Source of the DNA: a virus
Reading direction: 5' to 3' (one strand)
Virus record (IMG/VR): IMGVR_UViG_3300045988_017677
DNA: 41,029 nucleotides
Shown: piece after piece, positions 16,737 to 35,748 of the stretch
Numbering within the stretch: position 1 is the stretch's first letter
Layout of the letters: each line of letters starts with the position of its first letter
Notes under the pieces: generated by a model
The model's input: the letters and a program-made list of their open reading frames with translations, nothing else
What the model was told of the DNA's origin: nothing
The model's database searches: none
Made by a program: the position numbers and the translations under genes

Positions 16737-17960
16737 CTATCTGTTCCAAATGGGAGTATAATCGCGCCGATACGCCTTATTTTTCAAAATCGTATAGGCA
16801 AAATAGCGCGTCTCGTCCATTGCGTGATCGTTTTCCTTGATTGGTCTGTCATCAGCGGATTTTTCGTCCCACCGATATAGCCCAAACTCTCGGATGCAGT
16901 CTTTGCAGCCACGATGCACCTTGAGAATGCCGTCTTGCAAAAACCGCGCCGTAGTCATAATTCCGTTTGTCACGTCGTTGTTTGCCTTGCGGACTATATA
17001 GCCGCGCCGACGTAAAACCTCGATGAATGAAGCAGCAGACGGGTCAACGATGATGCTTTTGACGTCCGCATCGCCGATGAGCTTTTTAATCTCGTCGGCG
17101 TATTCCTCGTCCGTCTTGTTCTTCTGGCTCTCGCGCCCGGAATAGTAATACTCGCGGATGCGCGTGGCCGTCTTCCCGTCCCAACGCCACAGCCCAGCGG
17201 AAAACGGGTTAAGCGTGCCATAGTCGCATGACACATAGTATTCTCCCGTTTCCGGCAGCTCGTCCACAATACAGCTTTCGTCAAACATGGGATAGATCAG
17301 TCCCTCGGCCACTACCCACAAGCCGCGAATATAGCGGTCGTAGAATACGCCGGAAAACATAGATTGATAACGTTCCAGCGTCTTTTGAGATAATCCGGGG
17401 TTATCCGTCATTTCAAAATGCAAATACAGCGCGTTCCGCTCTTTGTTCCGCTGTATCCACTCCGTATAAAACCAGTGCTGTGGGCTTCCGGGGTTACAAG
17501 AAAACCACAGCTTTGCACCGTCAACGGAGCAGCGGGTCAGCGCCTGTTCCACGAACGAGCGCGGCATCAACACCACCTCGTCCAGCAGAACGCCAGCCAG
17601 CGTGCGGCCTTGAATCAGCGTGTAGCTTGCCTCGTCCTTGCCTCCGAACACTTCAAAATAGTTTGTAACAGCGCCACGCCGCACTTCCATAACCTTGTCA
17701 CCGCGCCGCCAACGAATGATATAACGCTCCTTGGCCAAACTCATCGCTGTGAACGGCACGATGATGTTTTTGGTGCAGCTATCCACCGTGCGGCCACACA
17801 CGCCGAAGCGCTGACCGCTGAAATTTTCCATTGCCCAGCGGACAAACGCCCACATCATGATGGAGGTTTTGCCGGAACGCACGGCCCCGTCGCAGATCAG
17901 CGCGTCATAGCGGCTGTATGGAAATGCCAATATTTTTTTCTGTTTATCGCTTATCGGCAT
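16737..17960 (-). CDS. terL: Terminase large subunit (PBSX/Terminase_3-like)
   Basis: Walker A motif DGAVRSGKTS. The ATG at 17960 has SD AGAGGA 8 nt upstream, whereas the track start at 17966 is TTG. Confidence 0.95.
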   Translation of the reverse strand: MPISDKQKKILAFPYSRYDALICDGAVRSGKTSIMMWAFVRWAMENFSGQRFGVCGRTVDSCTKNIIVPFTAMSLAKERYIIRWRRGDKVMEVRRGAVTNYFEVFGGKDEASYTLIQGRTLAGVLLDEVVLMPRSFVEQALTRCSVDGAKLWFSCNPGSPQHWFYTEWIQRNKERNALYLHFEMTDNPGLSQKTLERYQSMFSGVFYDRYIRGLWVVAEGLIYPMFDESCIVDELPETGEYYVSCDYGTLNPFSAGLWRWDGKTATRIREYYYSGRESQKNKTDEEYADEIKKLIGDADVKSIIVDPSAASFIEVLRRRGYIVRKANNDVTNGIMTTARFLQDGILKVHRGCKDCIREFGLYRWDEKSADDRPIKENDHAMDETRYFAYTILKNKAYRRDYTPIWNR

Positions 17961-18753
17961 TAACAAAATCCTCTATAATTTTTCTTTCCCTTTCGGAAAT
18001 AGACCAAATAACTTTGTTTTCCTTCTCCGCCGCTGCCTTCTCCGCCGCTGCCTTCTCCGCCGCAACTCTATCCGAGCAAAGCAAGCCTTTCCCAAAAATA
18101 GTTTTTTTGTTCTCTTTTTGCATATCAAGTGCTGAAATTCTTACAGATTCATTTTTTGGAACTAAAAAACTAATTCCGTACTTACTTAATTTTTGCAAGA
18201 ATGTAGCGGTAATTACATTATCTGGATAATCATATTTTGGAAGTTCTCTGTGTAACTTTCGCTCGTTCTTTTTATTTTCTTCCGTTATGATTTTGTATAG
18301 TTCTGGGCTTGTCCTTGCCACATTGCTTTCAAGGTTTGTTGCAAACGATGTGGAAACTTTAGCACCGTTTTCGTATGTAATTGATGCACCAACCGCAATT
18401 CCGCAATACCCATCGCAAACCGGAGACAAAAGGGTAAGCGCAGGAGCAAATAGAAAGAATTTTATGCCTCTTGAGTTATAAAAGCTAATTATTTTTGATA
18501 TAATCGAAAATGGAGGGTTGTCCAAAACAATGCATCCGTCTGAATACTCGTAACGCTCATAATCGCCGCCAGGATAAAACGGCCTTACGATGGAATCAGG
18601 AGCAATTCCGTATTCATTGCAAGCCCAACCTCGTATCGCATCATATACAAGTGGCGGAGTATAGCAATCATCCGTTGTTTTCTTTGGCTTGAACTTTTCG
18701 ACAAATGCGTCATATTCTGCATTGTCTTCAAACAAAAACGTTTTTTCATTCAT
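17944..18753 (-). CDS. DNA N6-adenine methyltransferase-like protein (NPPF motif), AT-rich insert
   Basis: 269 aa from the ATG at 18753. Motifs: TDDCYTPPLVYDAI and VLDNPPFS. It is visibly AT-rich relative to its flanks. A 15-nt tandem repeat at 18021-18063 encodes (AAEKA)n. The gene overlaps terS by 8 nt and terL by 17 nt. Confidence 0.75.
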   Translation of the reverse strand: MNEKTFLFEDNAEYDAFVEKFKPKKTTDDCYTPPLVYDAIRGWACNEYGIAPDSIVRPFYPGGDYERYEYSDGCIVLDNPPFSIISKIISFYNSRGIKFFLFAPALTLLSPVCDGYCGIAVGASITYENGAKVSTSFATNLESNVARTSPELYKIITEENKKNERKLHRELPKYDYPDNVITATFLQKLSKYGISFLVPKNESVRISALDMQKENKKTIFGKGLLCSDRVAAEKAAAEKAAAEKENKVIWSISERERKIIEDFVNADKR

Positions 18754-19168
18754 CGCTATCCAACTCCTCCGCCATCTCGCGCAGACTCTGACTAAGCGCA
18801 TCTTCTCTCACCGTGTCGGCAGGACTGCCGCCGATCATCGCCCACTTGTCGATCAGTGTCCCCATCGCCGTGGTGATCTGGCTGAGATTTGCCGCCGCCA
18901 GCTTCTCCGGGTCATTGAGCATTTCAAGCCCCTTGCCGATGAACGAACACACAAGGTCTTTGTGGTCGTTCATGTACTCCATCACATCGGCGGTGTTCTC
19001 TTCCTTTTTTTGCTCGCACTTTTCCACAATGTCAGCATTTGCCCGCACAAGGTTCTTGACTGTCGTTGCGGACACGCCGTTGATTTTCGCTGTGGCGCAA
19101 TAGTTGTTCGTCTGCACATAGTCCGCCAGTATTTTCTTTTTCTGTCGGTCTGTCAGACGCGCAGCCAT
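18746..19168 (-). CDS. terS: Terminase small subunit
   Basis: 140 aa from the ATG at 19168 with SD GAGGTG. An HTH-like N-terminus (KINGVSATTVKNLV), an acidic C-terminus and the position upstream of terL support the call. Confidence 0.75.
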   Translation of the reverse strand: MAARLTDRQKKKILADYVQTNNYCATAKINGVSATTVKNLVRANADIVEKCEQKKEENTADVMEYMNDHKDLVCSFIGKGLEMLNDPEKLAAANLSQITTAMGTLIDKWAMIGGSPADTVREDALSQSLREMAEELDSDE

Positions 19169-19296
19169 TGTCACCACCTCGCACCTTTATTTGCTACCAG
19201 CCCCCACCCCTTGGCTACAGTAACAGTCTTTCCCCTCCCATGCGGACCTCTTGGGCCTCTCAAACATGGGCTACACACTATTTTTGATATTTTCTA

Positions 19297-19325
19297 TTGA
19301 CAGAATGCATCGGATAGTATATGAT
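19297..19325 (+). promoter_or_regulatory. Sigma70-type promoter on the plus strand
   Basis: TTGACA (19297-19302), a 17-nt spacer, then TATGAT (19320-19325). Confidence 0.55.
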
Positions 19326-19331
19326 TGACTT

Positions 19332-19447
19332 GTCCGATGCAGGAGGCGCTTGCATCGGTGGGAAATTCGATCCTATTTCCCGTGGATTGAAATACCAAAA
19401 ACAGTATGCTGGGGAAAAAGAGCGGAGCTTCCGCTCTTTTTCCTTTT
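19332..19447 (+). ncRNA. Candidate ~115-nt sRNA
   Basis: Downstream of the promoter are two hairpins (ccgatgca/tgcatcgg at 19334-19359 and gggaaat/atttccc at 19360-19381), then the terminator at 19415-19441. No ATG-initiated ORF with usable SD spacing is present. Confidence 0.45.
19415..19441. terminator. Bidirectional rho-independent terminator
   Basis: The sequence aaaaagagcgga-gct-tccgctcttttt has a GC stem flanked by an A-run and a T-run, so it can terminate either strand. Confidence 0.75.
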
Positions 19448-20068
19448 TATTGTGCGGCATTGCAGTCCTGCCCTGCTTTAGCGCTTCAGGGAAAGTCCCC
19501 GTCACTCGCCGTGGTCTCCCCTTACGGGGCACCTATGCCGCATATTGGCCGTCTTCCCGCTTAGATTGTCACATCACCGATTGCTGCTTTACATGCACAG
19601 CACCATTACGCTGAGGCGGTCCCCTCCCACGGTGCAGTTTTCAGCGGGCATTGTCATTTCCATGTGAGCCACGACGAACGGTCTCACATTGTCCGGGTGC
19701 GACCCGGCATCTGGCGCAGACGGCAGGACTTGAACCTGCAACATACCTCCGGCGCGGTGCTCTTACCAACTGAGCTACGTCTGCATATGTCCCCTCTGGG
19801 TCACATCGTTGAGAGGTGCGAGGGGTCCTGTTGGTGCCGTGTGGGAGGTGCGACCTCCCGCCCCGGATCGTGGGGTGCAACGAGCGCACGGCATATAACA
19901 ACAGCCCATAGGTTTCCCTACAGGCTGTTTGTGCCGGTACGCCCGTTCCCGGGGCCTCTTGCGCGGTGCGCCCAATACCGGCGGCGCACATAGTATCGAA
20001 AGGAGGGAAGATGAAAGCTACATGGTGTAGCCGGAGTGGATGTGTTGGCTTTTGCCCAATCATCCACT
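19448..20068 (-). ncRNA. Candidate large structured non-coding RNA (ROOL/GOLLD-class hypothesis)
   Basis: About 620 nt with no credible ORF between the RinA-like gene and the terminator. It is GC-rich and has many stable hairpins, including a GAAA tetraloop hairpin (19900-19929, read on the minus strand) and two hairpins sharing a UCGCA loop. A possible extended-10 element TGGTAAAAT lies at 20075-20083. Confidence 0.4.
19712..19784 (-). tRNA. tRNA-like element with a truncated anticodon arm (possible degenerate tRNA-Arg(CCG) or tRNA mimic)
   Basis: The minus strand reads GCAGACG-TA-GCTC-AGTTGGTAA-GAGC-A-[ACC GCGCCGGA GGT]-ATGTT-GCAGG-TTCAAGT-CCTGC-CGTCTGC-G-CCA. Acceptor, D and T arms are canonical. 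The anticodon arm is 3 nt short, with a 3-bp stem and an 8-nt loop. Confidence 0.55.
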
Positions 20069-20088
20069 ATACACATTTTACCACATCA

Positions 20089-20553
20089 TTAAGTGGAATT
20101 TGTGCCATCTTTTGTGTAAAGGCCGCTATATTTGGCCACATCCATCAAAAATTGCTCTTTCCTCCGGCTGAATGTTCTCTCGCTGATACCCGGAATCACG
20201 ATCCGATTACGGGCATACTTGTGCTTACCTTGGCAGTTGTGCATGATGCCATATATCAGCTGCCGCCGGATTGCATCGCTACCAATATCTCTGCCGCAGC
20301 GGTCTATAGCGTATTCCACCGCCAGCATTTTCTTGGTTTCCGGCCAGTTCTCTATGGCTGCAAGCTGCTCCGCCTTGCTCTCGGCGGGTCTGCCGGCGCC
20401 CGATCCAGTTGGCATGCCCTCTGTGGCACTATGCGTCCCGTCCAGGATCTCCGCCCGGGCCTCGCGGTACGCCCGCACCCGGCGTGGATATCCACGCACA
20501 TAAGCAATGCACTCCAACCGCACGTCATAAGGCAGCGTCGCCTTTTTGCTCAT
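20089..20553 (-). CDS. Late-gene transcriptional activator (RinA/ArpU-like, sigma region-4-like HTH)
   Basis: 154 aa with SD AAAGGAGGG. It is the last protein gene before the packaging module. The C-terminal HTH is GISERTFSRRKEQFLMDVAKYSGL. Confidence 0.55.
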   Translation of the reverse strand: MSKKATLPYDVRLECIAYVRGYPRRVRAYREARAEILDGTHSATEGMPTGSGAGRPAESKAEQLAAIENWPETKKMLAVEYAIDRCGRDIGSDAIRRQLIYGIMHNCQGKHKYARNRIVIPGISERTFSRRKEQFLMDVAKYSGLYTKDGTNST

Positions 20554-34075: not shown

Positions 34076-34657
34076 ATGGAGAAATCGTTGCAGGACACTT
34101 GTCGGGACGCAAAACTGGAACAGCACATCACGGCGCAGGAGATAGCAGACCAATCCGGTGTGCCTTTGTCCAGCGTCAACAACTTTTTCGCGTCTACATC
34201 TAAAGCACCGGGCGTGTATGCGGCTGGCCCCATCTGCAAGGTGCTGGGGGTGTCTATGGACCGTTACTTTGGCATTGTAGAGGTTGTTTTGGCGCAAGAC
34301 CAAATCAAGCAGCTCCAGCAAGTCCATGACGAGGATGTGCGCCTTGCACGGATAGAGGGCGCATACGATGAGCTGTCTAAATCAGCAGAGGAGCAGAAGA
34401 GAAAAGCAAGGCGGCAGCGCACGATGCTGTATATCACATCGCTGCTGTCCGCTATCCTGCTGGGTATAGTTACATGGTATGTGGCGCTTGATTACCATGT
34501 GCAGGACGAAGGCCTAATCCGATCCAGGACAGCCGGTACGATTGCATGGATTGTCATTGCGCTTTTGGCGTTGGGTATCGGCGTACTTACATCCGTGCTA
34601 TTGTCCACTCTTGCGGCGGGCAAAAAATCCAAACAAGACGAGGAAGCAGAAAAATGA
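34076..34657 (+). CDS. Membrane-anchored XRE-type HTH regulator (HTH, coiled coil, 2 TM)
   Basis: 193 aa from the ATG at 34076. HTH segment ITAQEIADQSGVPLSSVNNFF. A charged helix follows, then two TMs (LYITSLLSAILLGIVTWYVAL and IAWIVIALLALGIGVLTSVLLSTL). The stop overlaps the int start (ATGA). Confidence 0.7.
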   Translation: MEKSLQDTCRDAKLEQHITAQEIADQSGVPLSSVNNFFASTSKAPGVYAAGPICKVLGVSMDRYFGIVEVVLAQDQIKQLQQVHDEDVRLARIEGAYDELSKSAEEQKRKARRQRTMLYITSLLSAILLGIVTWYVALDYHVQDEGLIRSRTAGTIAWIVIALLALGIGVLTSVLLSTLAAGKKSKQDEEAEK

Positions 34658-35748
34658 GCAACTGCATTAAATGCGGAACAACTCTTGTCCCCGGCGCTGT
34701 ATATTGCCATCTCTGTGGAAAAAAACAGGTAACAGAGCGGCGAAAAGCATTGAAGCGGGCAAACGGCACCGGAACTGTATACAAACTGGCTGGGCGTAGA
34801 AAATCGCCTTGGGTGGCAGCAAAAAACAAAGTGATTATCGGGCATTATGAGCGCAAAACGGGCGCTCTGGACGCTTTGGAGCGGTTGAACGGCAAGAGCT
34901 TAACGGAGCGGTATAATATGACCTTTGCAGAAGTCTTTGATGTGTGGAAAGAGGAGCATTACAAGGAGATCGGCAAGCAGGGGGTAGAATCATATAACAA
35001 CGCCTACCGCATATTTACGCCGTTGCACGGGAAAAAGTTTCGCGATCTCCGCACCGCAGACTTTCAGGCCGTACTTGACCCGCACATGGCCAAAAGCCAT
35101 TCCACCGTGAACAAGTACAAGCAGCTCATAACGCAGATGTCGAACTGGGCAATCCGGGAAGAAATATGCACGACAAATTTTGCAAAATTTGTGCGATTGC
35201 CGGAGAATGTCAAAAAAGAAAAGGACATCTTCACGGAGGAAGATATCCGTAAATTGGAATCCGATAACAGCGATTCGGCAAAAATTGTCTTGATGCTGCT
35301 GGCAACGGGTATGCGTATCGGGGAACTGTTCTCTTTGCCGCTGGCTGACTGCCACGGCGATTATGTGATTGGCGGCGAAAAAACCGAAGCCGGCAGAAAC
35401 CGAATTATCCCCATTCGACCGGAGGGGAAACAATACTTTGCCTACTTTGCGAAGCGAGCAACGGGGGAGCTGCTGTTATCCGGCTACGATGGGCAAAAAG
35501 TCCCGGCAAACTTCCGCAGGCGAGATTTTTACCCACTCCTTGACCGACTGGGCATAGAGCGCAAGACCCCACACGCCACACGCCACACATACGCATCCCG
35601 GGCGGTAAAAGAGGGATTGCCCCCAGAAATGCTGCAAAAAATACTCGGGCACGCCGATTATTCCACCACCGCAAACATATATACGCACATCGACGCGCAG
35701 ACACTTGTGGATGCGGTTACTAACACGTTACTAACAAATAAAAAATAA
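34654..35748 (+). CDS. int: Tyrosine integrase with N-terminal zinc-ribbon
   Basis: 364 aa. Motifs: CIKCGTTLVPGAVYCHLCG, then ATGMRIGEL, HATRHTYAS and LGHADYSTTANIYTH. Confidence 0.95.
   Translation: MSNCIKCGTTLVPGAVYCHLCGKKQVTERRKALKRANGTGTVYKLAGRRKSPWVAAKNKVIIGHYERKTGALDALERLNGKSLTERYNMTFAEVFDVWKEEHYKEIGKQGVESYNNAYRIFTPLHGKKFRDLRTADFQAVLDPHMAKSHSTVNKYKQLITQMSNWAIREEICTTNFAKFVRLPENVKKEKDIFTEEDIRKLESDNSDSAKIVLMLLATGMRIGELFSLPLADCHGDYVIGGEKTEAGRNRIIPIRPEGKQYFAYFAKRATGELLLSGYDGQKVPANFRRRDFYPLLDRLGIERKTPHATRHTYASRAVKEGLPPEMLQKILGHADYSTTANIYTHIDAQTLVDAVTNTLLTNKK

Follow-up and report, generated by a model that had tools for sequence, protein, structure and literature searches.

The DNA analysed here, referred to below as the window, is the 41,029-nucleotide (nt) IMG/VR virus record IMGVR_UViG_3300045988_017677. 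The subject of this report is the interval between the gene for a RinA-like late activator and the packaging gene terS, which is occupied by an array of small structured RNA cassettes, one of them (M3) identical in kind to the hairpins linked to genes of the toxin AbiF. The window belongs to a temperate phage with an integrase (34546-35748), helix-turn-helix repressors and Sak, YqaJ and DnaC-like replication genes, and its gene content runs from the integrase to the tail genes. All genes flanking the structured region are on the minus strand, abbreviated (-) below. The features referred to throughout are as follows, in the order in which the minus strand is read.

20553-20089, minus: RinA-like late activator, an open reading frame (ORF) of 154 amino acids with a weak match to phrog_248 ("transcriptional activator", E=2.8e-4)
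19996-20088, minus: M0, spacer after the RinA-like gene, delimited from the sequence and a terminator scan
19897-19995, minus: M1, conserved array leader, the 5' anchor for 76 arrays, in nearly all of the at least 80 loci fetched with the RinA-like protein
19832-19893, minus: M2, mini-cloverleaf of 60 nt (18 distinct homologues; 52 of 122 loci among the matches listed)
19785-19831, minus: M3, abiF-motif hairpin (Rfam RF03085 match at 19825-19790)
19712-19784, minus: M4, tRNA-like RNA (Rfam tRNA match, 52 bits)
19555-19711, minus: M5, self-contained domain of about 155 nt (32 distinct homologues)
19450-19542, minus: M6, cloverleaf tRNA mimic of 90 nt (26-30 distinct homologues)
19411-19445, both strands: T, bidirectional intrinsic terminator of 16 pairs with U-runs on both strands, the end of the array in the window
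19178-19289, minus: M7b, conserved leader directly upstream of terS, the 3' anchor for 76 arrays (77 of 122 loci)
19177/19168-18746, minus: terS
17966-16737, minus: TerL, with Terminase_6N/6C domains

Folding of the minus strand of 19405-20000 (596 nt) gave -261 kcal/mol, with a z-score of -4.67 relative to shuffled sequences and a stability matched by none of 100 shuffles; the z-score of the plus strand was -2.80. A first-pass annotation had described a locus of structured, non-coding RNA on the minus strand that includes a tRNA-like element and lies in a prophage, with the late regulator on one side and the packaging genes on the other, and this description is borne out: each helix that it listed is present on the minus strand, and 19450-19995(-) is confirmed as non-coding and densely structured. 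Its statement that no credible ORF exists stands in part only, as mechanical ORFs do occur, for example one of 140 amino acids (19641-20063(-)) that crosses M1 to M5 and whose frame is not conserved. A coding reading of this ORF was rejected, since at least 120 amino acids in one frame are found in only 5 of 78 relatives.

Rfam 15 was scanned sensitively against a 1.3-kb slice (19000-20300, both strands, E<=10, permissive filters) and at gathering thresholds against the entire window, where the sole match was to tRNA, at 19784-19715(-). The sensitive scan of 19000-20300 returned, besides this tRNA, a sub-threshold match to the abiF motif and no large RNA family. ROOL (RF03087) and GOLLD (RF01998), the classes of which membership had been suggested, were matched neither at E<=10 on 19000-20300 nor at the gathering threshold in the entire window, and a scan of 15 related loci gave tRNAs only, M1, M2, M5 and M6 matching no Rfam family.

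The region is a modular array of RNA cassettes

About 200 related gut-phage loci were compared overall, a scan of IMG/VR with the 17-nt core of the abiF hairpin yielding at least 120 loci and a scan with the RinA-like protein at least 80 (77-99% identity); all locus counts from these collections are samples, taken among the matches listed. Window segments and tRNA predictions were mapped onto the related loci, and arrays were delimited by M1 on the 5' side and M7b on the 3' side. The resulting 76 arrays, with RinA-like homologues 77-99% identical, displayed 43 cassette architectures and lengths of 368 to 1729 nt. The order of the window (M1-M2-M3-M4-M5-M6-T-M7a-M7b) recurs in a single array, L172, and the minimal array, one case, consists of M1-M7b alone. 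The relative position of cassettes shifts as well, with M6 ahead of M5 in L001 and with M4 on the upstream side of M3 in L007 and its relatives. Changed order was also evident in a blastn search of GenBank phages (INPHARED), in which two human-faecal phage scaffolds share pieces of the region; neither the region nor the hairpin found a cultured phage in this database, all matches being unannotated human-faecal phage scaffolds.

The region is therefore built from modules: its cassettes are self-contained and have been acquired, dropped and rearranged from one phage to another. M1, M2, M3, M5 and M6 are each self-closing and covarying, and several cassettes carry an encoded NCCA tail. The single ornate RNA of approximately 620-650 nt that had been envisaged is not what the homologous loci contain, these being composed of independent units of 45-160 nt with their own closing helices and with no conserved helix connecting one cassette to another. 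Such reordering and turnover would not be tolerated by a single conserved tertiary fold, and the independent gain, loss and shuffling of cassettes in the homologues further separates the array from ROOL (RF03087). The covarying helices contain frequent G.U pairs, which are A.C mismatches on the opposite strand, and this identifies the minus strand as the RNA strand.

M2 is closed by the stem UGCCGUG/CACGGCA and holds three hairpins, including GGGAGG-UCGCA-CCUCCC (19859-19843); CCA follows in the window (19834-19832), giving with the discriminator A an A-CCA end, and 8 of the 20 predicted pairs show compensatory double changes among the 18 distinct homologues. M5 contains the hairpin CCGGG-UCGCA-CCCGG (19707-19693), a second hairpin, UGUGAGACC..GGCUCACA, and repeated GACAAU(G/C) boxes. 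Its long-range closing helix, (G)CCCGCU/AGCGGG, varies between C-G, U.G and G-C among homologues, which share the same ends and have three alternative interiors. The two UCGCA-loop hairpins pointed out in the first-pass annotation are those of M2 and M5, and the third UCGCACC copy that it noticed (19821-19815) makes up the 5' half of M3, the abiF-type hairpin. Three copies of TCGCACC fall on one strand inside 160 nt, and the motif has no window-wide enrichment (7 matches vs 6.3 expected).

M6 is a four-way junction with an acceptor-like 7-bp stem, GCGGCAU/AUGCCGC, and three arms. It is closed by the long-range helix of 7-8 bp noticed earlier (19542-19535/19460-19453), which covaries (G-C<->A-U, C-G<->A-U). 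In the alignment of M6, 98.5% of the cells are paired, five pairs have double changes, several are G.U, and none of 500 shuffles matches the observed value, a significance that is overstated here as in the other shuffle tests because the homologues are closely related.

The tRNA-like element predicted for the middle of the region is M4, which scores 52 bits against the Rfam tRNA model (RF00005; gathering score 29) and combines a 7-bp acceptor stem with D and T arms, a discriminator G and an encoded CCA. In place of the anticodon stem-loop it has CCGCGCCGGAGGUAUGU, with 5 nt instead of the 13 central anticodon-arm positions of the model, so that neither a 5-bp stem nor a 7-nt anticodon loop is present, and ARAGORN called no tRNA anywhere in the window. 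This arm-less form of 72-73 nt occurs in at least 22 distinct homologues with a conserved replacement motif, CCGCRCCNGGAGGU. Across the wider M4 family (72-116 nt) the acceptor, D and T arms are common and the anticodon and variable regions hypervariable, with predicted "anticodons" AUC, CGC, GCA, CAC and UAU and, in one case, a 4-nt loop. Examples are found in L124 (3137-3218), L134 (3154-3246), L136 (3143-3224), L164 (2955-3045) and L016/L028, and these tRNA-shaped genes look less like tRNAs for decoding than like a single scaffold on which variable inserts are presented.

An AUAU-type spacer immediately precedes M2, M4 and M6, each of which opens with an acceptor-type stem of 6-7 bp. The same register is seen downstream of the abiF hairpin, where in 43 of 91 distinct viral contexts the next element begins exactly 6 nt (ACAUAU-like) past the stem, with an acceptor-type stem of 7 perfect pairs and NCCA after it, a combination found in none of 455 shuffles. 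This slot is variously filled by plausible Trp-CCA or Gln-UUG tRNAs, by M6, by members of the M4 family or by a cloverleaf that is not in the window. A cassette type foreign to the window directly follows the abiF hairpin in, for example, L014, L021 and L041: GCGGCGUGCAGAAGCAGAAGCG...CGCCGCUCCA, about 85 nt long and closed by an acceptor stem. It ends in an NCCA tail and matches no Rfam family.

The abiF-type hairpin M3

M3 is composed of the flank ACAGGAC, an outer stem CCCCUC/GAGGGG (19825-19820/19796-19791), an inner stem CAC/GUG, the loop CUCUCAACGAU, a 3' bulge ACCCA and the tail ACAUAU. It matched RF03085 with 27.1 bits (E=0.026 in the scan of 19000-20300; gathering threshold 37), the loop CCUCUCAACGAUG being identical to the consensus. 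Just 20.6 bits are reached on this model by a copy that precedes an Abi_2 gene, confirmed by Pfam, by 58 nt, which suggests that the threshold misses the subtype and that the score of M3 does not speak against membership. The hallmarks of the motif, namely the conserved loop, the short inner stem and the 3' internal bulge, are present in M3 and are invariant or at least 90% conserved in 45 distinct copies, the conservation of the loop being partly by construction since the homologues were fetched by the exact loop 17-mer. In the same copies all 6 of the 6 pairs of the outer stem have double changes, with none of 500 shuffles reaching the observed covariation.

The match of M3 to hairpins lying 58 nt upstream of Abi_2 genes (PF07751, 6e-19) extends over the 17-nt core of the loop, the bulge and the two flanks. 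In four viral loci the hairpin comes after a sigma-70-type promoter and is followed by a U-run and then by the Abi_2 ORF, 58 nt away where this has 283 amino acids and 21 nt away from the 297-amino-acid ORF of L068. These viral Abi_2-linked hairpins carry the ACAGGAC 5' flank of M3, its loop, the CCCA bulge and the ACAU 3' flank; in AbiF-linked loci the U-run takes the position of the tRNA-like element of the array, and the promoter lies just upstream of the ACAGGAC flank. M3 is identical in kind to the AbiF-linked hairpins. In cellular genomes the 17-mer is spread across phyla, with an Abi_2-like ORF directly downstream of the loop in 46 of the 120 loci listed, including Oscillospiraceae and Ruminococcaceae genomes, and with many further loci of the promoter-hairpin-U-run form. 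Viral contigs reverse these proportions, 4 of about 120 loci listed having Abi_2 and the remainder being orphan. Array-type copies in metagenome-assembled genomes of Dysosmobacter and Faecousia suggest the host group.

A tblastn search for AbiF in the window found none, a hidden Markov model built from 50 AbiF proteins matched nothing in its six-frame translation at E<=10, and Pfam scans of 27 window ORFs gave no Abi_2. As the next element is, moreover, a tRNA-like gene, M3 is referred to as an orphan copy. Only M3 was matched in the window by a custom covariance model, and the idea that the UCGCA-loop hairpins are degenerate abiF copies was rejected on this ground. Orphan abiF-type hairpins were also observed just upstream of Ser, Thr or Gln tRNA genes in L013, L048, L009 and L062/L077/L093, outside the phage group defined by M1 and M7b and in apparently unrelated lineages, the pairing of hairpin and tRNA thus seeming recurrent.

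The abiF-motif RNA RCd22 binds AbiF and neutralizes it in cis and in trans, for which the structure of the stem is needed and its sequence is not (PMC12373285). AbiF has been characterized as a HEPN RNase with the non-coding RNA AbiFr as its type III antitoxin, and the two have been described as an ancestor of Cas13 and a proto-crRNA, respectively (PMC12737573). M3 shares with the abiF RNA motif (RF03085) and AbiFr-AbiF the loop CCUCUCAACGAUG, a 3-bp inner stem and the 3' asymmetric bulge, as well as the covarying outer stem and flanks of AbiF-adjacent hairpins (PMC12373285; PMC12737573). Unlike those, it has no adjacent AbiF, promoter of its own or U-run and sits between tRNA-like cassettes, and in contrast to RCd22, with two motifs, it is a single copy; its score is below the gathering threshold. 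In the literature searched, neither orphan abiF hairpins within tRNA-like arrays of phages nor the present cassette arrays were found to have been described.

Leaders, terminator and neighboring sequences

M0, which is of the type found in the window in some relatives only, holds TGGTAAAAT (20083-20075(-)), a putative extended -10 promoter, as well as a long hairpin, a terminator-like hairpin at 20032-20016 and the CU-rich tract CUUCCCUCCUUUCG (~20010-19997). The terminator-like hairpin, GGCUACA-CCA-UGUAGCU and then UUUCAUCUU, lies directly 3' of the RinA-like gene. The CU-rich tract ahead of M1 resembles the 3' end of 16S rRNA. GGAGG-type sequences occur in the replacement loop of M4 (~19745-19755, minus) and in a plus-strand small RNA candidate (see below), and CACCUCC/CACCUCU within the M2 and M3 loops; kissing or anti-Shine-Dalgarno interplay would be possible.

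In M1, the 7-bp helix GUGCGCC/GGCGCAC (19989-19983/19972-19966), annotated previously at 19966-19989, overlaps GCCGGUA/UACCGGC (19982-19976/19939-19933). The two helices, each conserved and with covariation in one relative (L001), may form a pseudoknot-like or an alternative arrangement. They are accompanied by inner tetraloop hairpins, with GNRA- and UNCG-loop variants interchanged between loci, and by the strong hairpin 19929-19900 followed by UGUUAUAU. For the latter the GAAA loop on the minus strand had been correctly recognized, and what had been taken as an internal loop consists of tandem U.G/G.U pairs. The M1 alignment includes four pairs with compensatory changes, mostly in this terminal hairpin.

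The terminator T had been placed near 19415-19441 and was recovered by the terminator scan at 19411-19445; together with M7a it travels as a unit in about 20 of the 76 arrays. A near-consensus sigma-70 promoter on the plus strand (TTGACA-17-TATGAT, 11/12; 19297-19325) faces this terminator, and a plus-strand small RNA of about 115 nt, with two hairpins and GGAGG in one loop, is predicted within 19297-19450 from promoter and T. The alifold energy of the T and M7a unit is -47.9 on the plus strand vs -32.8 on the minus strand, and one variant is G.U on the plus strand and A.C on the minus strand.

M7b includes a hairpin (19225-19192(-)) with the G-rich apical loop AAGGGGUGGG, directly upstream of the terS ribosome-binding site, which was found in 77 of 122 loci irrespective of the preceding cassettes and may serve to control translation or packaging. 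Between terS and terL, an ORF of 285 amino acids (17944-18801(-)) contains DNPPF, a motif characteristic of N6-adenine DNA methyltransferases. Its sole match is to phrog_21498, of unknown function (6e-90); Pfam gave none, and the ORF may encode an anti-restriction methylase.

A proposed processed array with a candidate AbiF decoy, and its alternatives

With the cassette architecture, the RNA structures and the correspondence of M3 to AbiF-linked hairpins established, it is proposed, with about an even chance of being right, that the region is a hypervariable small-RNA gene array, the precursor of which is processed at the tRNA-like elements, and that M3 is an orphan decoy of the AbiF antitoxin type. 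The array would be transcribed as one polycistronic minus-strand precursor framed by the constant leaders M1 and M7b. With their acceptor-type stems and NCCA-type tails, M2, M4 and M6 could act as signals for RNase P and 3'-end processing, and cuts at tRNA-like elements would release the interspersed RNAs, the CCA end of M2 and the 5' end of M4 trimming M3 almost to the natural antitoxin termini, which are defined by a promoter and a U-run. As the window encodes no AbiF, the released M3 would act on the AbiF (Abi_2, a HEPN RNase) of the host or of resident prophages, binding the toxin and keeping it inhibited. The arm-less tRNA-like RNA and the other cassettes would most likely be further decoys or substitutes directed against defenses that target tRNA or RNA, in line with the conservation, rapid turnover and tRNA-like shapes of M2, M4, M5 and M6, although these four could equally serve only as scaffolds for processing and stability.

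The T4 tRNA cluster contains the co-processed stable RNAs C and D, and phage tRNA arrays counter anticodon nucleases. The present array resembles such clusters in its single orientation, encoded acceptor stems, interspersed non-tRNA small RNAs and presumed maturation by RNase P; it differs in that its elements are mostly not decodable tRNAs, the anticodon region being hypervariable or missing, and in its extreme cassette turnover.

Several points weigh against the processed-array proposal. M3 was found in only 19 of the 76 arrays listed, which makes an anti-AbiF role the property of one cassette and not of the whole locus. Its score is below the gathering threshold, the conservation of its loop owes something to the way in which homologues were retrieved, and the RCd22 antitoxin needs two abiF motifs where the window has one; the relatedness of the homologues inflates the shuffle statistics. 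The tail of M6 is ACAA in the window and not CCA, most relatives having NCCA. The putative promoter is only a consensus match, and the terminator-like hairpin 20032-20016 and the M1 hairpin intervene between it and the cassettes, so that, if the former is functional, expression of the array would depend on read-through. Finally, the location behind the late activator suggests that the array is expressed late, and this may be late for a counter-defense factor.

An unlikely alternative is that the region works in cis as a leader of the late (packaging) operon. M0, M1 and the cassettes would then make up a long 5' untranslated region controlling terS-terL by attenuation, antitermination or processing, in which the tRNA-like and abiF-like elements would be only stabilizers or passengers. 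Among the loci listed M1 always comes after the activator gene and M7b always before terS, M1 ends with a strong hairpin and a U-rich tract (a clear UUUUUAU run in L001), and the internal terminator T is missing from most arrays, which would allow read-through into terS. However, the cassettes flanked by M1 and M7b can be dispensed with and exchanged, to the point of the array with M1-M7b alone, a 16-bp terminator parts the array from terS in the window, and this reading leaves unexplained why M3 corresponds exactly to AbiF antitoxin hairpins.

It appears quite unlikely that M3 derives, as its cognate antitoxin or as a relic, from a phage-borne AbiF module with its toxin gene beyond the window or lost, the hairpin being self-protective or vestigial. 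AbiF/Abi_2 systems are often carried by prophages (PMC12373285), and the four viral loci with hairpin and Abi_2 together are of this arrangement, yet no Abi_2 was found within the window, from integrase to tail genes, the toxin never follows the hairpin in the arrays listed, and the intact stem covariation, bulge and flanks of M3 across many lineages argue against decay.

That the locus is a decaying phage tRNA cluster, with the tRNA-like elements as pseudogenes and the other hairpins as neutral debris, is very unlikely. Genuine-looking tRNAs (Trp-CCA, Gln-UUG) do fill the same slots in relatives and M4 is without a usable anticodon arm; decay, however, does not account for the maintenance of the 72-nt form without this arm, of which there are at least 22 distinct variants sharing a fixed replacement motif, for the compensatory changes and 98% pairing in M2, M5 and M6, or for cassette boundaries that are sharp and in register. 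A signal acting at the DNA level, with hairpins and repeats as pac/cos or TerS-binding sites, had been offered in the first-pass annotation as the alternative and is highly improbable: the region is immediately upstream of terS and M7b is highly conserved as DNA, but the helices tolerate G.U and not A.C and are hence strand-specific, cassette content differs among phages with near-identical neighbors, and the folds present are of tRNA and abiF type. One large ornate RNA of the ROOL/GOLLD kind, already largely refuted, retains hardly any probability, given that its like features (non-coding nature, a length of some 600 nt, strong folding and a temperate-phage context near tRNA-like genes, not diagnostic by itself) are set against the lack of a covariance-model match at E<=10 and against modules that shuffle independently, with no conserved inter-module helix, instead of one conserved multi-junction fold (PMC5737381).

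The processed array with M3 as a decoy would belong, as regards M3, to a known kind of mimicry, in which an RNA copies the RNA of an immune system; several accompanying motifs match no Rfam family. Pseudo-ToxI of phage PhiTE mimics ToxI, the RNA antitoxin of the abortive-infection system ToxIN (PMC3594212), and is thus, like M3, a phage non-coding RNA resembling such an antitoxin, with neutralization of the toxin predicted for M3. The predicted target of M3 is HEPN AbiF and not ToxN, its unit is a hairpin and not tandem repeats, and the arrangement is natural in many phages as a mobile cassette, in contrast to selected escape mutants. Similarly, the RNA anti-CRISPRs (Racrs), solitary repeat units, are viral orphan copies of an RNA that binds an immune effector (PMC10651486); for M3 the effector would be the toxin of a toxin-antitoxin system instead of a Cas protein.

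A broader and more tentative hypothesis, possible but given well below even chances, is that the locus is an RNA counter-defense island, that is, a recombination hot-spot with swapped cassettes each encoding a small RNA decoy or antitoxin for a different immune effector that binds RNA or targets tRNA, the tRNA-shaped closures of the cassettes serving to hijack the RNase P and CCA machinery of the host. M3 would be the first cassette with an identifiable target, and M2, M5, M6 and the hypervariable-anticodon family would be RNA inhibitors, not yet described, of further defense systems. The rapid turnover of the cassettes resembles that of arms-race loci.

Whatever its function, the array supplies new RNA families supported by covariation, including the mini-cloverleaf, the 90-nt CCA-tailed cloverleaf, the 155-nt domain and the arm-less tRNA-likes, and it hints at a natural "tRNA-scaffold" route to small-RNA production; even if the function were merely cis-regulatory, a ROOL/GOLLD candidate would have been cleanly reclassified. 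AbiF is a widespread abortive-infection toxin, and we know of no mechanism by which phages evade it. The orphan AbiF-antitoxin hairpin present in many gut phages can be tested directly as a candidate RNA-based factor against AbiF and, if confirmed, would lengthen the short list of RNA-only counter-defenses now formed by pseudo-ToxI and the Racrs.

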